Shown piece after piece: positions 1,308 to 13,103 of a stretch of 17,791 nt of DNA (within the stretch, counting starts at the first letter, position 1; every line of letters begins with the position of its first letter). This stretch comes from a virus. Lineage: Duplodnaviria; Heunggongvirae; Uroviricota; Caudoviricetes. The position numbers and the translations under genes are program-made. The notes under the pieces were generated by a model. The model was not told where the DNA came from. It did no database searches and was given only the letters and a program-made list of their open reading frames with translations. The stretch is taken from IMG/VR virus record IMGVR_UViG_2698536647_000006; one strand, given 5' to 3'.

Positions 1308-2330
1308 TCAATCGCTCCCTTTCCGCCCTTCAGCTACAGGGTCGTTGTCGGCGATAACAAAACCTAAGTCCTGAGAGAATCTCTCTCGTGGGAATCCTTT
1401 AGCAGGTAAACCCATTGAATCATATCCACATCCGGGAACATTTGGTTTAGAGTCAATAAGGTCTGCAATTTGCCGAAGCCATGTTGATCCCGGACCAAGT
1501 TGTTTAACTAAGTACCAGATAATACAGATCGCGCTAAAAATCCTCTCGCAACTCTCTGGATGGAGATTAAGTCCGTCAAAGTATTCATTATCCGGTACTG
1601 GAACTCGGGGATGCTTTCTATTCCATATTCTGGAATGGTGAGCGCAACGATTCCTTATGAGATTAAGGCACTTCAACCATTTTGCAAATGTCTGCTTATT
1701 ATCAATGCCAAAACGACGTATAATTTTCCCCTGCATATGACCATTAAGCATCGCATAATATTTAGACATCTGACCAAAATCCCAGGTCTCCACCGCCACC
1801 CAAAATGGAATCTCCTTGCCTTGGCTTCGATGCCATTCAATACAGTCATCTCTGCTTTCGTCTAATTTTACTTTTTGCTTATACACCCAATGCTCGAAGG
1901 CAGATGAGAATTTTGGATTAATGTATTTTGATGACATGTAGGCAAGTGGATCATTGCGACCAACCTCATGCGCGATGACTGAACGAACATGAATCTCTAT
2001 TCTTTCGATAGCATCAATCATCAAAAGACGCAGTTTTTTGTCAAAAAGATATAGATCGTACGTCTTCTCGAAACTGGTACCAGCAAGAAATCGGTCTGTT
2101 CTGTACGAAAGACCTTTATCTGTTGTCGCAATAATTCTTGATGGGTACCAAAAACCTGACAATCGATAATATCCAACCTGCGACAGCTTACGTATCGCAC
2201 GATTTCGATCATTGATAATCATGCCACGTTCAAGTAGCAATCCTAGCAATTCGTGATAGTCCTTATGAGGCTTTGCGGCAATCATAGTGGCGAAACAAAA
2301 GATAATAAAAGGCCCGACCGTGAAACTCAC
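1308..2330 (-). CDS. Abi_2 family abortive-infection protein (AbiD/AbiF-like)
   Basis: Length ~325-340 aa. N-terminal KPHKDYHELLGLLLERGMIINDRNRAIRKLSQVGYYRLSGFWYP and C-terminal LNLIRNRCAHHSRIWN match motifs I associate with lactococcal AbiD/AbiF-type proteins. The true start is probably the internal ATG at 2285 (MIAAKPHK...). Confidence 0.7.
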   Translation of the reverse strand: MSFTVGPFIIFCFATMIAAKPHKDYHELLGLLLERGMIINDRNRAIRKLSQVGYYRLSGFWYPSRIIATTDKGLSYRTDRFLAGTSFEKTYDLYLFDKKLRLLMIDAIERIEIHVRSVIAHEVGRNDPLAYMSSKYINPKFSSAFEHWVYKQKVKLDESRDDCIEWHRSQGKEIPFWVAVETWDFGQMSKYYAMLNGHMQGKIIRRFGIDNKQTFAKWLKCLNLIRNRCAHHSRIWNRKHPRVPVPDNEYFDGLNLHPESCERIFSAICIIWYLVKQLGPGSTWLRQIADLIDSKPNVPGCGYDSMGLPAKGFPRERFSQDLGFVIADNDPVAEGRKGSD

Positions 2331-3526: not shown

Positions 3527-5632
3527 TTATTGAGATTCTTTTTGTGATGCCTGTGCGACTCTGGTGAGCGATTGTGTGACCGTACTGATCGCTCTGTCAT
3601 ATGCTGTGCTACCTTTTGGCGTATTTGCCAGACGTAACAAGGCATTTCGTATAACAGGGCTTTCGTATGCCTTCGCTGCTCCGCCTACGACACCAGCAGC
3701 AGGAACAACAAACGCAGCCGTTTTTAGCATCCCCGCTAATACTGCTGCGTTTATGATGCCACCACCAACTAACAATCCATAAAGCTGCTGACCATTTAAG
3801 TTTTGAACGTTCGCTTTTGCCGCGTGTCTTGTATCATTGAGGTATTTAATAACGCCGTCCAGTTCCTTTCCATATACGCCTTTAAAGAAAGTTGCTGATT
3901 GCTTCCTGTTCCGGTGTAACGCATTAATAAACTTCTCAACACTGATATTTCCAGACGGATCAGTCGCCTTATCTACAGCATTCTGAACTATGGCGGCTCG
4001 TGCGTTTTGCCTACCATTGTCATCCAGAAGCCTGTAAAGCTGAGAACGTTCTGATGGGTTTTGGCTAAAAACGAGTTTTGTTACATCCTCAGGCGTGGCC
4101 TTGCCGCTGGCTATTGCCTTTTGAACGCGCGTTCTTCCCATCATGTCATTGAATCTAGCCCATGAGCGATCAACCCTAGACATATTGGTAGCTTCTTCTG
4201 AGCCTAGTTTTTGGGATACTGCTTTTTTCATATCCGCTGTATATGCCTTGTAGACAATATCGCTGGCTTTCTGGAGCGTGTCTTTATCAACAGTCTCGTT
4301 TGAATTCATGAACCGCTTTCGAAGGTCAGTTCTGTTTTCTCTCGCCAGACGCAGGTCATTGGGTCCGCTGGTGATATCGTCTTTAAATTGCTGCAAGACT
4401 TTTACCGCGGCTCTATCCTGAGATTTGCCCGGTCGGCTTAACACGGCAATCTGATTGTCGATAGCTTTTACCGTGTTTGAGAGATCGACAGGGGTATCCC
4501 CCATAGCGTCAATTATGCGGTTATATCGCTTTCCTGCTGCCTCAATGAATTTTTGCTGCCCTTTAGTCGCAGACTCATAAAGCTGTTTATCTGAAATTCC
4601 CCCCAGACCATCGCTAAATGTTCTGACTAAATTTTCTCGTGCTTGTTGTTGATTCAGTCGGTTCTTACCGGTTCCAAAAAAAGGAAGTCTTTCGCCTAAT
4701 GTCTGAGCCTGACTCTGCATAAAGGTTTTATCTTTCAGCATGTCACTGGTCATTAACGGCAGATTTCTTTCCGATGCAAAGTCGACAGCAGCCTTTGCTT
4801 CAGGCGACATATCACCACGAACAGCCCTCGAAACCGCACTCGCTGTATTTTCCAGCCCCTTACCAATACCACCAATGCCAGCAGAAATTACCGTTTGTAA
4901 CGGATCAATATCTTCTCCACCAGCAAGGCTGGTGGCTCCCTGTAGTGCTAAATCTGTAGCTGCTGATTTTCCTATGGCACCAAGCACCGTTCCAGCCCTG
5001 CCCGCTGGTGTAAACGCCAACGCATTAGCAAGAAACGAAGTCAGGTCTTGCGGTGATAAACCCGGCTTGTTTAGGGCATAATCACCTGATGGCAGAGAAA
5101 CGATAGTATTCCCCTTCTCATCCTGCCTTAATGTCGCCCCCATTCCCTGAAGAATCTTTTCCTGAGACGCGTCAGAGCCGAAAAGTTGAGACCATCCAGC
5201 CTTTAAGGCATCCATGCTTAGTGAGTTCAATTCTGGGGCAGAGGCGACATTTTGCAGTCTCTCCATCTCTGGAGTCATTCGGCTTTCGCCTGTTATAGCA
5301 TCGCGCATCGCAGCCCCAAGACTGGCTCCCTGTTCTGCTGAACGCTCAAGCCCCTCTCTTTGCTGAGTAGCTAACTTTGCATACCCTGACGCAAGAGAAT
5401 TATCAGATGATGTATGTTGAATATTTTGAGTTGCTGATTGGGATCGGTCTATTTCATTCGTTGATGGCAGTGGATAGGCAGCATAAAAAGCCTGCTTAGC
5501 CTGCTCTACACTTTCTCCGGCTTGCGGGGCCACGACTTCATTGAAGTATTGCTCCTGAGCCTGCGCTTTTTGTTCTGGTGCTAACGCCTGATACTGTGGA
5601 GAAGCGATAACATCTTTCCATGCTTTAGCCAT
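3527..5632 (-). CDS. Hypothetical 701-aa low-complexity (A/G/Q/S-rich) protein with a C-terminal hydrophobic helical hairpin
   Basis: Long ORF whose ATG (5632-5630) overlaps the upstream stop as TAATG, with GGGG 6 nt upstream. No P-loop or other catalytic motif seen by eye. Hydrophobic segment LYGLLVGGGIINAAVLAGML-KT-AAFVVPAAGVVGGAA lies ~48 residues from the C-terminus. Confidence 0.8.
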   Translation of the reverse strand: MAKAWKDVIASPQYQALAPEQKAQAQEQYFNEVVAPQAGESVEQAKQAFYAAYPLPSTNEIDRSQSATQNIQHTSSDNSLASGYAKLATQQREGLERSAEQGASLGAAMRDAITGESRMTPEMERLQNVASAPELNSLSMDALKAGWSQLFGSDASQEKILQGMGATLRQDEKGNTIVSLPSGDYALNKPGLSPQDLTSFLANALAFTPAGRAGTVLGAIGKSAATDLALQGATSLAGGEDIDPLQTVISAGIGGIGKGLENTASAVSRAVRGDMSPEAKAAVDFASERNLPLMTSDMLKDKTFMQSQAQTLGERLPFFGTGKNRLNQQQARENLVRTFSDGLGGISDKQLYESATKGQQKFIEAAGKRYNRIIDAMGDTPVDLSNTVKAIDNQIAVLSRPGKSQDRAAVKVLQQFKDDITSGPNDLRLARENRTDLRKRFMNSNETVDKDTLQKASDIVYKAYTADMKKAVSQKLGSEEATNMSRVDRSWARFNDMMGRTRVQKAIASGKATPEDVTKLVFSQNPSERSQLYRLLDDNGRQNARAAIVQNAVDKATDPSGNISVEKFINALHRNRKQSATFFKGVYGKELDGVIKYLNDTRHAAKANVQNLNGQQLYGLLVGGGIINAAVLAGMLKTAAFVVPAAGVVGGAAKAYESPVIRNALLRLANTPKGSTAYDRAISTVTQSLTRVAQASQKESQ

Positions 5633-7080
5633 TAATCACCCCATAGTGAAGAAAAGTTACTGCTGGCTGCTGGCTGTGATACCTGTGCAGGTTGAGATTG
5701 CTGCCGCTGAGATTTACCAACATTAACGTTATATTGCTGGTTGTAATTGTCGGTATATTGCTGAATGTCGCGCATTGATTGTTGTAGTGCTTCAGGGCTT
5801 GAGAAATCAGGCTTTGGCATACCCTGAAAATACCTATTGGCCTCTGCTTCGGTGTTGATGCCAGATGCCCCCATATCTCGGGCTGCCGCAATCCCCTGAT
5901 TTTGCATTTTGCCCATGATTCGCTGTGCAGCGTTGTATAGTTTCCTCTCCTCAACACCAGATGCCCGGCTACGAATATCTGCACCAAGAGCAAAAGAACC
6001 TGAAGAACCTGTAATACCTGTCATGAAGCCAAGATCGTCAATTGATGCGCCAGAAATTGCATCAAGATCTTTCTTCATTTCGTAATTCTGCGCATTAGCT
6101 GCCGATGTAGCCGGAGCAGCAATAGAACTTGCGGGGACGCGAATCATATTGCCCTCGTTGTCTATTCCTTCGTAGAACGCATTAGCACCAGCGCCGTGAA
6201 GCTTCCTACCAACCGTTACCGTTCTACCATCTGCCAGTTGCACAACATTCTCCCCGCCAGCAGCAGGACGGCCTCGAACACGAAGATATGTCTTTTGTTG
6301 CTCTGGAGACAGGCTGTTGAAATATTGATATTCTTTAACAGATGCAGGAACAGCACCTCCAGCAGTGCGCAGAGAGTTTTCACGGCTAACAGCAATGCTT
6401 TGCGCCTGTAAACCTTCCCCAGCTTTATTGCTGCGAATCGTCTCTGCCAACTCGCCACGCTCAATATCCCGACCCTCCATTCGATCTTTGATATCGAAGT
6501 ACTTCTCATGACCGAGAGAAAACAGCGCCAGATTACCTGCGAAATGCTGGAAGCCCTGCGGGTCATTAACCTGCATTTCAGCAATAGTTTCTGGAGGGAT
6601 ACCTAAACGACGCATCTCCTGCTCATTATCCATCATGAACCTGCCAAATGCGCCCGGACCAAGCGATGAGGCTACCTGTGCTTTGAGCGCCAGATTGCCA
6701 TAATCATCCCTTTGAGCATCATCGACATAACTCATCCCTTTACGGACTTCCTCAAACTCTTCTGGGAATGCTGTAATAAGATTACGCATCTGCTCCCTGT
6801 CGCCGGACGCATAAGCATCTGCATAACCTTTCTGGAATGCCGCTTTACGCTCCTGCTGTTGCTGCTGCTTATAAATATCAGCAACTCCAGCCAGACCACG
6901 TAACGCGGTCAGACCAACGTTATTTGCACCTGAGCGAGCCAGTTCATTGTTTTCGCGGATCAGACCAAGCGTTGCGTTAATGTCGCTTGCCTTTGGCGCA
7001 TTCTCATTTTGCGTACCGATGCCAGCCAGAAAACCACCAGAATTAATACCCTGTTGCCACGTAGCCATTGATTTACCCAC
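5632..7080 (-). CDS. Hypothetical 482-aa low-complexity (Q/G/A/N-rich) protein, translationally coupled to the 701-aa gene
   Basis: Long ORF with no recognisable enzymatic motif. The track start is GTG at 7080; an alternative ATG at 7068 lies 4 nt after the stop of the 57-codon ORF. Confidence 0.8.
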
Positions 7081-7830: not shown

Positions 7831-10587
7831 TCATTCTTCAGATGAGTTATAATCTCCAGGCTGGTAATTGAGTACATAAACGTTTATTTGTCGTCCCTGA
7901 ATACGTGGTGATTTTCTTTGGTATCCACGACCGCTGTTTGGTGGGGTTAGCATCCCGGCTTTTTTCAACACTTCAGCAAACTGTTTTGCGTTGAAACCAC
8001 ATGCGATCTCCTTTTCAAATGTGGCCGGGAATGTGTAGAAAATCATTGGGCTTTCGTCATGTTCTCCACGCTGACGGTATCCGGCCAAATCTTTGATGGG
8101 CAAATCTGCCGGGCTGTATGGAAATGGTGCAAAACGGCTAAGCCCATAGGCATTAAGAAATGCCTCCGTTTGTTCAATAATCTGCTGATGTTCTTTGTTA
8201 CCTGTGCCGAACTCGCGCAACCATGCGTTATAGCTGTGCTGTATCGCATCACGGCATGTCTGAGCATCCCAGCCTGTTACAACCTCGCCTAACAGCAATG
8301 CGGCCTCCAGAATGGCAAATCGCGCGGCTACACGGTGAACCTGCTCACCATAATCGGATGGGATCAGACTTCTCCATCTGCTTTCGCAGTCACGAACAGT
8401 TTTAATTGCCTGTTGCTGGTGGTCTGCCAGCCATTTAATCCACTCACGCCCGGCTGCGCCGTGGTGATGCTGGTAAGCGTCTTTCAGTGCGTCTGCGTGC
8501 TGTTTTCCGTTCTGGTAATCGTGAAAGCGTACTGCTTTACTCAACGGAATATTCAGCAGTCGCACCAGTTGCCCGGCTTTGGTTTTTCGCCCGGAAGTAG
8601 CGATAAATGTTTCTAAATCCATTTCTCCAGTGCTGATTGCCACTGTACGCCAGCGTTTTAGATCCCGGTTTCCACCATCTTTAGCGCCTTGCAGTTTCCC
8701 TACACCGTTAAATAACGCATAGGCAGACTGTGAAACACTGACAGGATCAGCGCCCTGACCAACTTCATCAAGCGGTATTAGTCCGTCATTGTGGGCGGCG
8801 GCTTCATTTGCCAGCCCCAGCGCGGTTCCGTACCACGTCAGCCGCAATAAATCAGGGTTGCCGTATAAGCTGCTCGCCACGTTTGCCGTGGTGGTCTTAC
8901 CTGCGCTCGACTGCTCATAGAAATGAATGCCGAACCCGTCAGCGCCCACCAGCCCAATCAATGGCGCTGCCAGTGCTGCGCCGATCCCGGTCATCATTGA
9001 ATAGTTACCAAAGGCCAGACGCGCCACGTTATCACGCCAGCTTTTCGCGCTCCCTGAGACGGTATATCCGGCTGCGGCTGAGCTTCTCCCGCTGAACAGC
9101 ACAGGATTTTCAGGTGTTCCGATGATTTCCCCATCAGGCATGATGTACGCTCCGCATTGCCAGCCAGTGGCATGAGCAACACGCCACAATTCACGAGAGC
9201 CACTGCGTTGTAGCCAGTCTGCCAGTATTGCTCTGAGGCTGCTTTTGGTCGTGACATTTACCCCACCAGCTTTAAGTGTGCGCCATCCTTCACGTTCACC
9301 AATATCAGCCAGTGGAATAGCAGCGGTTGTCGGCGTTTCAGAACCAAACGACAGCCAGCGAAGAATGAGATACTGGTCTTTATCGTCTCTGCCAGTACCG
9401 ATAACGCTTAACGGAGAACATAACCAGCTTTCGTTATTGATGATTTCTCCACTCTGGCTGTCAGCTCTCGGAGATACCCAATAAATACCATCCTCGCGGC
9501 TTTCTATTCTTGGTTTCAGTGGGTCGGTATCCATAACCTTAAAATCGCTTCCCTCAATGGTCTGTGGCTGCTGTTTCACGCCATTACCCTGTGGTTGGTA
9601 CATTGACTTATTGAACGCTTCTGTGGCGCATTTAATGCCGTGTTTTTGGTGGTAATCATTCCAGTCTGCTTTGTGATCTGTCGGGGGTAATGCCACCCAT
9701 CCAGAAACAGATAAAGCTGCTTTTTCTGCTGCTATTCTCCCCGTGTTTTGTCTTCCTTCGCTGTGGTCGTTATCCGCAGCAATGATGATTTGTGCTGAAG
9801 GAAATTTATCCCGCAGTACCTGGGCGACATATAACAGGTTCCCGGCATCAATCGCCGCCACTGTCAGCGATTCTGGACGAATTAAATGGGCAGATAATGC
9901 CGTTGCCAGCCCTTCTGCGATTAAGATGCTCTGTGTTGTTTCTGGTGCGTTTATGGCGTGATATGCCCCTCGCTTTGCTGAACCTGTCAGGAGTCTTTTT
10001 TCACCATGTGAGGTAATAGTCTGTGCTGCTGTGACTGCGCCGGATTTATCCACCAGCGCCAGCAACAGAGATCCATCGGGCAACACTGGGAATGTAAAAT
10101 CACCTACCCCTTTCGCAACCAGATAATCAGATTTGCCGTTTACAGCCTTTCTGCGCATGTCATCAAACTGACGGGAAAACGTATCCCGTCTTTGTTGTTC
10201 GTCCTTCTCTGCCCTTTTCAGGCGCTCCTGTTCGCGTCGCTGGCGCTCGGTTTCCAGTTGTTCCCGTTTCTGGCTGGTGGCTTCTGGTGTTTCCGTTGTC
10301 CGGTAATCAATACCCAGAACATCAGCGGCAAGCAGCGCCGCCTCTGTTGTGTCGCAGTTATTTACGCGTTTAATTAAATCCAGCCCATCACCAGCGCCGC
10401 ACTGATTACAGATGAAGCTACCGCGCCCGTTGTCATCGAACCGGAATCGATCTTTGCCCCCACATGCAGGGCAGGGAGCATGACGGCGCGGAGAGTCAGG
10501 GACATTTATGTTCAGGCAGCCCAGCACATGAGGCCAGTTGTTTTCAGACGCACTGATAACCTGACGGATAAGATCAATGTTTCGCAT
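7831..10587 (-). CDS. Primase-helicase (zinc-ribbon primase, TOPRIM, P-loop NTPase), 918 aa
   Basis: Cys-rich N-terminus CPACGG...CNQCG; TOPRIM-like IAEGLATA...AADNDH; Walker A SSAGKTT and Walker B-like IPLDEVGQ. GGGGG RBS 5 nt upstream of the ATG at 10587. Architecture resembles satellite-phage replicases such as P4 alpha. Confidence 0.85.
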   Translation of the reverse strand: MRNIDLIRQVISASENNWPHVLGCLNINVPDSPRRHAPCPACGGKDRFRFDDNGRGSFICNQCGAGDGLDLIKRVNNCDTTEAALLAADVLGIDYRTTETPEATSQKREQLETERQRREQERLKRAEKDEQQRRDTFSRQFDDMRRKAVNGKSDYLVAKGVGDFTFPVLPDGSLLLALVDKSGAVTAAQTITSHGEKRLLTGSAKRGAYHAINAPETTQSILIAEGLATALSAHLIRPESLTVAAIDAGNLLYVAQVLRDKFPSAQIIIAADNDHSEGRQNTGRIAAEKAALSVSGWVALPPTDHKADWNDYHQKHGIKCATEAFNKSMYQPQGNGVKQQPQTIEGSDFKVMDTDPLKPRIESREDGIYWVSPRADSQSGEIINNESWLCSPLSVIGTGRDDKDQYLILRWLSFGSETPTTAAIPLADIGEREGWRTLKAGGVNVTTKSSLRAILADWLQRSGSRELWRVAHATGWQCGAYIMPDGEIIGTPENPVLFSGRSSAAAGYTVSGSAKSWRDNVARLAFGNYSMMTGIGAALAAPLIGLVGADGFGIHFYEQSSAGKTTTANVASSLYGNPDLLRLTWYGTALGLANEAAAHNDGLIPLDEVGQGADPVSVSQSAYALFNGVGKLQGAKDGGNRDLKRWRTVAISTGEMDLETFIATSGRKTKAGQLVRLLNIPLSKAVRFHDYQNGKQHADALKDAYQHHHGAAGREWIKWLADHQQQAIKTVRDCESRWRSLIPSDYGEQVHRVAARFAILEAALLLGEVVTGWDAQTCRDAIQHSYNAWLREFGTGNKEHQQIIEQTEAFLNAYGLSRFAPFPYSPADLPIKDLAGYRQRGEHDESPMIFYTFPATFEKEIACGFNAKQFAEVLKKAGMLTPPNSGRGYQRKSPRIQGRQINVYVLNYQPGDYNSSEE

Positions 10588-11676: not shown

Positions 11677-11867
11677 TTTTCACCCCCAAGAATTACCAGC
11701 TCGGCACGGGCATCGTTAACCAAAGATGAGCGCGCTTTAATCGCATCCACGACATCAGCAGCGTCCATTTCTTCAGCCGAAAGACTGACAGCAACCGGGA
11801 CAGCCGCTGCTTGCTCGATTAATTGAAGTGCGGACGTAAGGCGAGGGGTATTAATTGAGTTATTCAT
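11673..11867 (-). CDS. Hypothetical small protein (64 aa; track ORF extends to 11924)
   Basis: The ATG at 11867 is preceded by GGGGG and overlaps the upstream stop as ATGAATAA; the longer track start has no RBS. Confidence 0.5.
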   Translation of the reverse strand: MNNSINTPRLTSALQLIEQAAAVPVAVSLSAEEMDAADVVDAIKARSSLVNDARAELVILGGEK

Positions 11868-12078
11868 TGGTTGCCCCCGTTTTGCATGGCATTTGTCCAC
11901 CTTCCAGCAGGAAATGAACGTCACGAACGGCGAGGTCCAATATCGCGAGTAACGCCTTCAGTTTTTCGTCTCGTGAGGGAGAGTTGCTCACCAGAATGTC
12001 GTTAATCACTTCTGTCAGTGTGATGATCTGGCTTGTGCGTTCGAGGGGATCCATATGCACATCGTAGGTTTTAATCAT
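11860..12078 (-). CDS. Hypothetical small protein (72 aa), nested in-frame at the 3' end of the 355-codon ORF
   Basis: ATG at 12078 with GGAGG 6 nt upstream, overlapping the stop of the 12071-12265 ORF as ATGATTAA. Product [30 protein letters not shown]... looks protein-like. Confidence 0.45.
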   Translation of the reverse strand: MIKTYDVHMDPLERTSQIITLTEVINDILVSNSPSRDEKLKALLAILDLAVRDVHFLLEGGQMPCKTGATNE

Positions 12079-12927
12079 GTGCCACCTCCATGCGGATACG
12101 ACCAGCAAAAAAGCAGATGTGATCGCGCACCAGAGAACGGCGAGCATCGCGTTCAGACTCGGCAGCAATATGATGAATTTTGGCGGTAATTGTCGGGCAA
12201 TCGCGGCGAACTGCGGCGATAATCCAGATAAATTGCGTTTTTTGGGTAGGGGTAGTAGCCAGCATGTGGCAGCCTCCTTCAGATAGCAGGTTACGCTACC
12301 ACCGGAAACGCCAATTTCGCTGGTGGTAGCCCAGACAGGGTTGGCGTAACCGGCTCTGAAGGATACCGGCGCTTCCGAAGAAGCCCCCGCCTGAGCCACC
12401 ATTGATTGACAAAGGCGCTGGATTATACACCAACGCCCAAAAAATGGGTGAGTCAGACCTACGACATAAAAAAAGACGCTCGGCGCGTCATATGTCGCCT
12501 TCAGAATTTTCAGGACGCCAATCCCGGCACCCGTTTTATGAGGTGCCTTATAACCATAAACCGTGTTGCCGCATAACGGCAAGCTCTTTTTTATGGACTC
12601 CGAAAACTCACTATTGGAAGAACCAGAAGCACAGTACATCGCGCTCATTTCGTTAACGTCACGCGCGTGGACGAAGGTTTTTGTGGAGTCACTACACGAG
12701 CAGAGAAAGCCATCTACGACCAGAAATTCTCTGGCATAGCCGCTGACCTTCTCAACGCTAACACCATCGACCGTAATTTCTGACATAGTTAAGGCATCCG
12801 CTCCTACCACCAGAAAATGATAAACTTTGCTTGTATCTGCTGTATTAATGTCTGACTTTGCTGTCATATTGCTGGATTTTGGCGACATACCAGCCAGTGA
12901 AAATATCTTCTTCTGGGCGGTTAGCAT
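11860..12927 (-). CDS. 355-codon ORF, probably composite; the 5' ~220 codons may be a real gene
   Basis: ATG at 12927 with GGAGG 7 nt upstream, and no in-frame stop until 11860. The middle segment overlaps a strongly RBS-fronted ORF in another frame and reads as low-quality protein; hairpins lie inside it. Confidence 0.3.
12071..12265 (-). CDS. Hypothetical small protein (64 aa)
   Basis: ATG at 12265 with a perfect AAGGAGG 7 nt upstream. It overlaps the long 355-codon ORF in a different frame. Confidence 0.4.
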   Translation of the reverse strand: MLATTPTQKTQFIWIIAAVRRDCPTITAKIHHIAAESERDARRSLVRDHICFFAGRIRMEVAHD

Positions 12928-13103
12928 TTGTTAACCTCCGCGAACTCCTTCATGAAACGTGCCAGCGGTTGTACGCATGGCGATTGATACCCGTCGCGAT
13001 AAAACGTCACTCGGTTGTGAGACACGCTTTCGACAGTAACGAGTGCTCCGTGGGCATCTTTGTAGCGTTTTTGAGGTTGTGGTGTTCCTGTCGGCTTAAA
13101 CAT
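12921..13103 (-). CDS. Small conserved island protein (~60 aa; possibly DUF4222-like)
   Basis: ATG at 13103 (MFKPTGTPQPQKRYKDAHGALVTVESVSHNRVTFYRDGYQSPCVQP...) overlaps the upstream stop as ATGTTTAA. Resembles small prophage proteins I recall; family unverified. Track ORF extends to 13190. Confidence 0.45.
   Translation of the reverse strand: MFKPTGTPQPQKRYKDAHGALVTVESVSHNRVTFYRDGYQSPCVQPLARFMKEFAEVNKC

Follow-up and report, generated by a model that had tools for sequence, protein, structure and literature searches.

The interval at 11860-12927 of the window (the whole 17,791-nucleotide stretch of viral DNA that was analyzed) is likely the immunity region of a P4-like satellite, of the PLE-seqA-cI-seqC-kil/eta type, in which a 355-codon frame would be selected for being translated. 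Systems of this kind are known, and the window holds an ordinary member with a minor variant, namely, an icd gene that lies out of frame with the long frame. The genes that matter for the argument are as follows.

11860 to 12927, minus strand: the long 355-codon frame of the ORF list, an eta-like "ash family" ORF.
12935 to 12939, minus strand: GGAGG, the Shine-Dalgarno sequence of the long frame, inside the 3′ end of the DUF4222 gene.
12071 to 12265, minus strand: a 64-codon icd/kil-like gene whose frame is +2 with respect to the long ORF.
11860 to 12078, minus strand: a 72-codon gene, in frame with the long ORF.
7831 to 10587: the primase gene, at the end of the downstream replication genes.

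The window represents a P4-like satellite prophage of E. coli, located at tRNA-Thr beside proA. The same DNA was found in 479 of 5426 complete E. coli genomes; in one of the carriers, strain MB10, it is part of a P4-like satellite prophage integrated at tRNA-Thr and adjoining proA. The gene order there is integrase, AlpA-type HTH gene, a 143-aa ORF, AntA/B, DUF4222, and the long ORF, followed on the 3′ side by four small ORFs and then the TOPRIM/DUF927 primase. Between alpA and the primase, seven of the nine gene junctions in the window are start/stop overlaps, and both ends of the long ORF are among them. The long-ORF arrangement recurs in a protein cluster with 1393 members and in Klebsiella elements, where the ORF has 49% amino acid identity over 98% of its length. 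"Ash family" ORFs of 330 to 355 aa with the layout of the window are known in both E. coli and Klebsiella. In some relatives, the C-terminal module is swapped, and the 72-codon gene gives way to an unrelated module. Automatic annotation by PGAP treats the identical sequence in two ways; it calls either a single "ash family protein" of 355 aa or a "pseudo" ash gene accompanied by an "Icd-like protein" of 64 aa.

Several features indicate that the long frame is more than a chance opening. First, its start codon (ATG at 12927) is preceded at a 7-nt spacing by the GGAGG and overlaps the DUF4222 stop codon (12921-12923) by 7 nt. Second, its stop codon (11860-11862) and the ATG of the following gene (11867) form an 8-nt overlap. 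Third, residues 116 to 220 align with residues 14 to 133 of P4 Eta (39% identity; E value, 4e-18), and the alignment stops exactly before the Kil methionine. On the strength of this alignment, the long frame is a homologue of P4 eta. Finally, phrog_6928 is shared between two frames, with its positions 31 to 148 matched by the long ORF and 138 to 194 by the 64-codon ORF. Residues 124 to 232 of the long ORF match Pfam family PF10554 (Phage_ASH) with 117.2 bits against a cutoff of 26. No family was found for the N-terminal 123 codons in Pfam, NCBIfam, and PHROG searches, and the 355-aa ORF did not match the NCBIfam Icd-like model NF033153.

The Pfam score could be taken to mean that the ORF encodes a true "Ash" regulatory protein of 355 aa that belongs to the Bro network, with selection acting on its amino acid sequence and with any RNA matches incidental. 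The existence of near-full-length ORFs in two genera agrees with this, as does the listing of the domain among the Bro-network domains in PMC10111431. However, we consider such a protein very improbable. The Phage_ASH match corresponds to nucleotides 12232 to 12558, a stretch that is coextensive with two RNAs, isrK and C4, plus the icd Shine-Dalgarno sequence. The AlphaFold prediction of the long ORF, made with a 10-sequence alignment and weak as evidence, gave no confident fold (mean pLDDT, 32.5). The other points against a selected protein come from the structure of the RNAs and from codon positions, which are described below.

The upstream part of the Phage_ASH stretch contains the following elements.

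12553 to 12582, minus strand: a putative internal sigma-70 promoter, homologous to P4 PLE by column-by-column alignment to P4.
12468 to 12546, minus strand: an IsrK/seqA-like leader RNA (Rfam RF01394).
12526 to 12547, minus strand: isrK hairpin 1, GGCACC-N10-GGTGCC.
12511 to 12526, minus strand: isrK hairpin 2, which carries target a1.
12515 to 12521, minus strand: target a1, UUGGCGU, in isrK hairpin 2.
12498 to 12505, minus strand: target b1, UCUGAAGG, in the IsrK-like leader.
12475 to 12489, minus strand: the isrK intrinsic terminator, a GACGC-N5-GCGTC stem with a U7 run (T7 in DNA) at 12468 to 12474.

The putative promoter consists of a −35 element TTGCCG (12577-12582), an 18-nt spacer, and a −10 element TATGGT (12553-12558), which align with TTGCCT...TATAGT of P4 directly upstream of the isrK match. 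The two elements agree with the consensus at 8 of 12 positions, which is below the threshold of the promoter scan. The generic scan missed this promoter and returned a lone, unrelated weak site (12755-12726); the assignment was made through the alignment to P4 and not through the scan. From this alignment, we infer promoter function and a transcription start at about 12546.

The isrK model matched 12469-12546 with 67.8 bits (gathering threshold, 50; E value, 6.7e-13). All three hairpins were found in the minimum free energy fold of the IsrK-like RNA, and the terminator was also listed by the terminator scan. RNAalifold did not recover the terminator stem of isrK. When the Rfam-type structure itself was checked in 37 relatives, 93.6% of the helix cells were paired, compared to 32 to 41% when the partners were slid, and eight pairs showed compensatory changes on both sides. 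A sequence-only reading of this DNA had suggested that part of the region is a structured noncoding RNA and had listed three hairpins. The suggestion holds, since isrK scores above the Rfam gathering threshold and two of those hairpins belong to it, and the features greatly exceed what chance would give; all three hairpins exist, although each had been placed 1 nt off. The third, TTGCCG-N5-CGGCAA at 12566-12582, lies within the −35 element and spacer of the internal promoter and was not conserved among the relatives. It scores as terminator-like on the plus strand, and there is no plus-strand gene before it.

The second RNA and its targets lie farther downstream.

12319 to 12406, minus strand: a C4/CI-like antisense immunity RNA (Rfam RF01695).
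12355 to 12363, minus strand: C4 loop b′, UCCUUCAGA.
12341 to 12347, minus strand: C4 single-stranded tail a′, ACGCCAA.
12273 to 12314, minus strand: the downstream C4 targets.
12308 to 12314, minus strand: target a2, UUGGCGU.
12275 to 12283, minus strand: target b2, UCUGAAGGA, which overlaps the icd Shine-Dalgarno sequence AAGGAGG at 12273 to 12279.

The C4 RNA, which the sequence-only reading had not singled out, matched the complete Rfam model (positions 1 to 87 of 87) with 79.9 bits against a gathering threshold of 45 (E value, 1.3e-14). It folds with −46.4 kcal/mol (z = −4.8), and among 40 diverse relatives 14 of its 27 pairs have changes on both sides. In the window, b′ is complementary to both b1 and b2 over 8 to 9 nt, and a′ to both a1 and a2 over 7 nt. 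Such complementarity is locus specific. When 49 distinct loops were compared, the median match of b′ to the targets of its own locus was 8 to 9 nt compared to 4 nt across loci, and a′ matched its own targets over at least 7 nt in 49 of 49 comparisons. Judged by these matches, the C4 loop and tail and their targets determine specificity in an antisense immunity system of the P1/P4 type. An extended −10-like motif, TGTATAAT, at about 12424-12431 in the interval between the terminator and C4 was considered as a C4 promoter and dropped; it is not conserved outside the close lineage.

Downstream of the targets, two genes with their own signals share the remainder of the long frame. The 64-codon ORF, whose AAGGAGG had been noted from the sequence, was recognized by NF033153 with 70.3 bits (cutoff, 25) and has 40% identity to P4 Kil. 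The 5′ part of its RNA is C rich and G poor, i.e., rut-like. The 72-codon gene has its own Shine-Dalgarno sequence (GGAGG, 12085-12089), and its ATG at 12078 overlaps the icd stop codon by 8 nt. This ATG is in the long frame, as (12927 − 12078)/3 = 283. No Pfam, NCBIfam, or PHROG family was matched by the 72-codon gene. The sequence-only reading had described the 355-codon ORF and its ribosome-binding site, the internal ATG with GGAGG, and the overlapping ORF, and all of these are present.

Comparison of codon positions between the window, a second lineage of E. coli, and two Klebsiella elements with the same gene order showed which of these frames are selected as protein. In the icd segment, substitutions peaked at the third codon position of icd (7, 4, 19 and 7, 5, 20), which is position 2 of the long frame. 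Over the last 72 codons, the comparison with Klebsiella gave a coding-type pattern in the long frame (27, 12, 39 and 26, 12, 37). Substitutions were flat over codon positions in the promoter/isrK, spacer, C4, and linker segments (8, 10, 8; 12, 12, 11; 5, 7, 7; and 6, 5, 5), and no protein-level selection was detectable by this comparison in the Phage_ASH stretch. The N-terminal ~100 codons could not be aligned between E. coli and Klebsiella and showed no third-position excess between the two E. coli lineages (12, 8, 11). Protein-level selection was thus seen in the icd frame and the 72-codon gene only. By its substitution pattern, icd is under purifying selection, with its own Shine-Dalgarno sequence and ATG kept.

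Because the RNA segments are flat whereas the icd and 72-codon frames are coding, the long frame is a composite, as had been proposed from the sequence; its parts are two Rfam RNAs, icd in another frame, and the 72-codon gene with its own Shine-Dalgarno sequence. The comparison of homologous islands, which had been recommended as a check, thus found the icd and 72-codon frames conserved as coding and the RNA segments not. A single conserved 355-aa protein had been named as the finding that would refute a composite. Although there are ORFs of that length, their conservation is not that of a single protein. The same data count against a selected Ash protein: paired stem positions change together and thereby alter the amino acids, the icd overlap follows the icd frame, and the N-terminal part is nonhomologous between relatives.

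The long frame is probably translated as well. However, neither the RNA segments nor the N-terminal part shows codon periodicity, the AlphaFold prediction is unconfident, and PGAP annotates identical DNA in two ways. These points might instead suggest an annotation artifact, that is, a frame which is never translated and whose openness was inherited by chance together with conserved RNA sequence; the promoter, the two RNAs, icd, and the 72-codon gene would then be the functional units. We regard this as unlikely, although less so than a selected Ash protein. Its openness was examined in a wider set of modules. A DNA-pattern scan for C4, with one genome per species, yielded 120 loci, and the frame survey covered the 77 modules from many genera that had both RNAs and enough flanking sequence. 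The long frame was open across isrK and C4 in 64 of the 77, compared to 9 of 77 for each of the other frames; these and the following counts overstate independence because the modules are related by descent. In all 13 E. coli/P4 copies, the long frame alone was uninterrupted from a point before isrK to far beyond C4. In modules without isrK, the frame was open in 2 of 37.

The survey showed some further trends. First, the isrK-to-C4 spacing was a multiple of three in 62 of 77 modules even though it fell into 13 length classes, so that the register is kept through spacers of variable length. Second, each of the 59 in-register modules had the frame open over 66 nt or more on the upstream side of isrK, with a median open length of 135 nt compared to 53 and 10 nt in the other two frames. 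Third, the 27 longest upstream extensions fell into 16 unrelated sequence clusters. Finally, in Pseudomonas/Azotobacter modules, which have a 106-nt spacing, another frame is open over both RNAs. A spanning ORF was absent from 8 of the 77 modules, which is a point in favor of an artifact and means that the long frame is not indispensable. Against an artifact stand the kept register and the unrelated extensions, together with the overlaps of the long-frame start and stop with neighboring genes. The sequence-only reading had overlooked that the long frame is more than a mere artifact, being an eta homologue that is kept open and overlaps its neighbors.

The variant of the window lies at the start of icd, where it carries 2 extra nucleotides compared to most modules (GGAGGCTGCCACATGCTGGCT compared to GGAGGCTGC--CATCATGGCT). 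This difference takes icd out of the register of the long ORF, and the long frame therefore bypasses Icd and runs on into the 72-codon gene. Among the 49 modules with an Icd-like gene, 39 have it nested as in P4 and 10 have it out of frame as in the window, the latter including Klebsiella, Pectobacterium, and Buttiauxella elements with diverged icd. The frame that the long ORF uses was open through icd in 10 of 10 out-of-frame cases, compared to 13 of 38 nested ones. It is thus consistently open only where it is used, which again is not expected of an artifact. The 10 modules represent about four independent lineages, which gives roughly p = 0.01 rather than 1e-5, and the support from this openness is therefore modest.

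The 2 extra nucleotides, seen against the 39 of 49 modules that lack them, could also mean that a P4-type eta with nested kil was broken here, leaving a frameshifted pseudogene, or that the assembly contains an indel. The sequence-only reading had raised a sequencing indel or accidental frameshift, and this did not hold up; it is the least credible of the explanations considered, with hardly any probability left to it. The same sequence is present in the 479 complete genomes and in the 1393-sequence cluster, and the layout recurs in Klebsiella, Pectobacterium, and Buttiauxella with diverged icd. Furthermore, icd keeps its Shine-Dalgarno sequence, its ATG, and its purifying selection, and the shifted frame is open and ends in a start/stop overlap.

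The closest known system is P4 itself. The C4 model matches the P4 CI RNA gene at 8420-8507 and the isrK model the seqA leader at 8615-8692; IsrK has been equated with seqA and C4 with CI (PMC3632133; PMC4825925). P4 eta extends from an ATGA overlap with the vis stop codon (8767) to 8168, has 199 codons, and encloses PLE, seqA, cI, and kil. P4 and the window have the same order of promoter, IsrK/seqA, C4/CI, target at the Shine-Dalgarno sequence, and kil/icd; in both, the module sits between an alpA/vis homologue and the primase operon, and the long ORF begins ahead of the internal promoter, its start overlapping the stop codon of the gene before it. They differ in that P4 nests kil in eta whereas the icd of the window is in the +2 frame. 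Compared to P4 eta, the long ORF of the window has about 115 extra N-terminal codons and the extension made up by the 72-codon gene, and unlike in P4, a 143-aa hypothetical ORF, AntA/B, and DUF4222 lie between alpA and the long ORF. In the part of PMC10111431 that summarizes Forti 1999, the P4 promoter is described as constitutive and internal to eta, Kil as a truncated Eta, and Eta as coupled to the alpA homologue, with Eta translation preventing the immunity-specific, Rho-dependent termination and with CI arising by processing. In P4, Phage_ASH matches the obsolete "cI gene product" CDS, and P4 epsilon belongs to another family, PF25738.

The immI region of P1 and P7 is made up of the c4 antisense RNA, icd, and ant, and the C4-family RNA shares a transcript with its targets. 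P1 C4 uses a′ and b′ to pair at two sites, one upstream (a1/b1) and one at the ribosome-binding site of icd (a2/b2). The window has the same combination of a C4-family RNA, a two-site a′/b′ pairing scheme, and an Icd-like product. P1 has an antirepressor gene 3′ of icd, whereas the window has the 72-codon ORF, small ORFs, and the primase; its AntA/B-type gene lies upstream of the module, unlike P1 ant.

The third system is Gifsy-1, in which orf45 was experimentally shown to be translated and coupled to anrP (Hershko-Shalev 2016, PMC4825925). We found that orf45 is in the register of the long frame, starting from the AUG of the C4 homologue (nt 107, in agreement with that paper) and ending in an ATGA overlap. 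Gifsy-1 and the window share an IsrK RNA with an intrinsic terminator, leaky in Gifsy-1, and a C4-like RNA downstream of it (STnc1160 in Gifsy-1). The Gifsy-1 frame has 45 codons and begins only at the C4 AUG, with a stop codon 6 nt upstream, whereas that of the window starts farther upstream; the gene regulated in Gifsy-1 is an antirepressor, unlike in the window. Taken together, the reports of translation for P4 eta and Gifsy-1 orf45 are a further argument against a frame that is never translated.

Our preferred reading, an immunity region whose long frame is selected for being translated, draws every dynamic step from P4 and Gifsy-1. In the prophage state, the internal promoter would fire at about 12546, by homology to P4, and most transcripts would end at the intrinsic terminator to give an IsrK/seqA-like RNA of ~78 nt. 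Transcripts that read through would be processed to the C4/CI-like RNA, whose a′ and b′ would base pair with a1/b1 of the leader as well as with a2/b2 at the Shine-Dalgarno sequence of icd. With icd left untranslated, the untranslated RNA would be terminated, by Rho in P4, and the downstream replication genes, with the primase last, would be kept silent. Upon induction, transcripts would begin upstream, ahead of alpA, and ribosomes would move from one overlapping ORF to the next until they enter the long frame, where they would go on translating through the terminator, C4, and the targets. Translation of the long frame would block RNA pairing and termination, so that the transcript reaches the replication genes. 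The long frame would then be selected for being translated, and its product would itself not be selected.

A stronger form of this reading is that the "ash family" frame is purely a conduit for ribosomes, held open by selection in many lineages, over unrelated sequence and even in different registers relative to the RNAs, with its amino acid sequence irrelevant. We give this about an even chance. If it is true, upstream-initiated transcripts would override the RNA-based immunity switch, and ribosomes reading through the out-of-frame variant would also make no toxic Icd/Kil moiety. The conservation of the PF10554 "protein family" would then be due to two RNA genes, and the use of PF10554 as a P4 epsilon marker in satellite detection would really detect immunity RNAs. 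PF10554 is in use as such a marker even though P4 epsilon belongs elsewhere.

The biology itself has already been described, as the work on P4 immunity and eta dates from the 1990s and both RNAs are recognized by Rfam. The present analysis is of value mostly for annotation. On the preferred reading, thousands of enterobacterial CDSs, annotated as "ash family protein," as long "Icd-like" proteins, or in some cases as "Rha family," would be read-through frames over an RNA switch; in many cases, the real icd gene is unannotated. Through the survey, the pattern in which an ORF stays open across immunity RNAs is extended to dozens of elements besides P4, and the recurrent out-of-frame icd variant could serve to separate read-through from Kil toxicity experimentally.

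The RNA module, isrK (a seqA-like leader RNA, RF01394) followed by C4 (a CI-like antisense immunity RNA, RF01695), is embedded in RefSeq coding sequences carrying differing names, namely, "Icd-like," "ash family," and "Rha family regulatory protein," and the "Icd-like" ones that enclose it are 185 to 303 aa long. Enclosing coding sequences in the comparison loci were as follows:

L005 1501-2412, CDS enclosing the RNA module
L007 1325-1882, CDS enclosing the RNA module
L009 1276-1821, CDS enclosing the RNA module
L012 974-1816, CDS enclosing the RNA module
L013 1234-1812, CDS enclosing the RNA module

The translated isrK/C4 region itself matches Pfam PF10554 (Phage_ASH) at window 12232-12558. 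In phage P4 (L014), the PF10554 match is the obsolete "cI gene product" CDS, and the P4 epsilon family is PF25738 instead of PF10554 (the intervals compared were L014 8168-8584 and 7888-8175). One published study that surveyed P4-like satellites took PF10554 to mark epsilon (PMC8628076).

In e14-like lambdoid prophages the module is placed after ymfL/DUF4222, and in E. coli S88 two copies form a tandem pair. In the Pseudomonas/Azotobacter isrK-C4 modules (L041, L049, L089, L101, L102, and L115), the spacing is 106 nt and a long ORF is open over both isrK and C4; however, its register over C4 differs from that of the enterobacterial modules. At the N-terminal end of the window's long ORF, the first ~15 codons (AQxKxxSLAGL/M; window 12883-12927, minus strand) are kept between E. 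coli and Klebsiella, whereas the ~90 codons that follow are unalignable between the two. This conservation may lie in a peptide, in an initiation region, or in a nucleic-acid site.

The stretch separating the isrK terminator from C4 contains an extended -10-like motif, TGTATAAT (window about 12424-12431, minus strand), about 18 nt upstream of the C4 5′ end. The motif was found in the window, L004, and the Klebsiella oxytoca relative (L137) and was absent from P4 and most relatives. This motif could be a lineage-specific second C4 promoter. The K. oxytoca relative also has a match to the Rfam int-alpA RNA (RF02996) between integrase and alpA (L137 417-485, plus strand); the equivalent place in the window gave no match at an E value of ≤0.1.

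The satellite carries the following genes (window coordinates):

1308-2330, minus strand, Abi_2 (abortive-infection-like) gene
3527-5632 and 5632-7080, both minus strand, two P22-type DNA ejection/injectosome genes (Inj_translocase and a 701-aa partner)

For a P4-like element, the ejection/injectosome pair is unusual cargo; the 701-aa partner gene is a pseudogene in E. coli strain MB10, which carries the same satellite. Separately, a small ORF of the operon, 87 aa long (L004 754-1017 and L003 1314-1577), bears the RefSeq name "nicotinic acetylcholine receptor subunit beta," obviously a name-propagation error.
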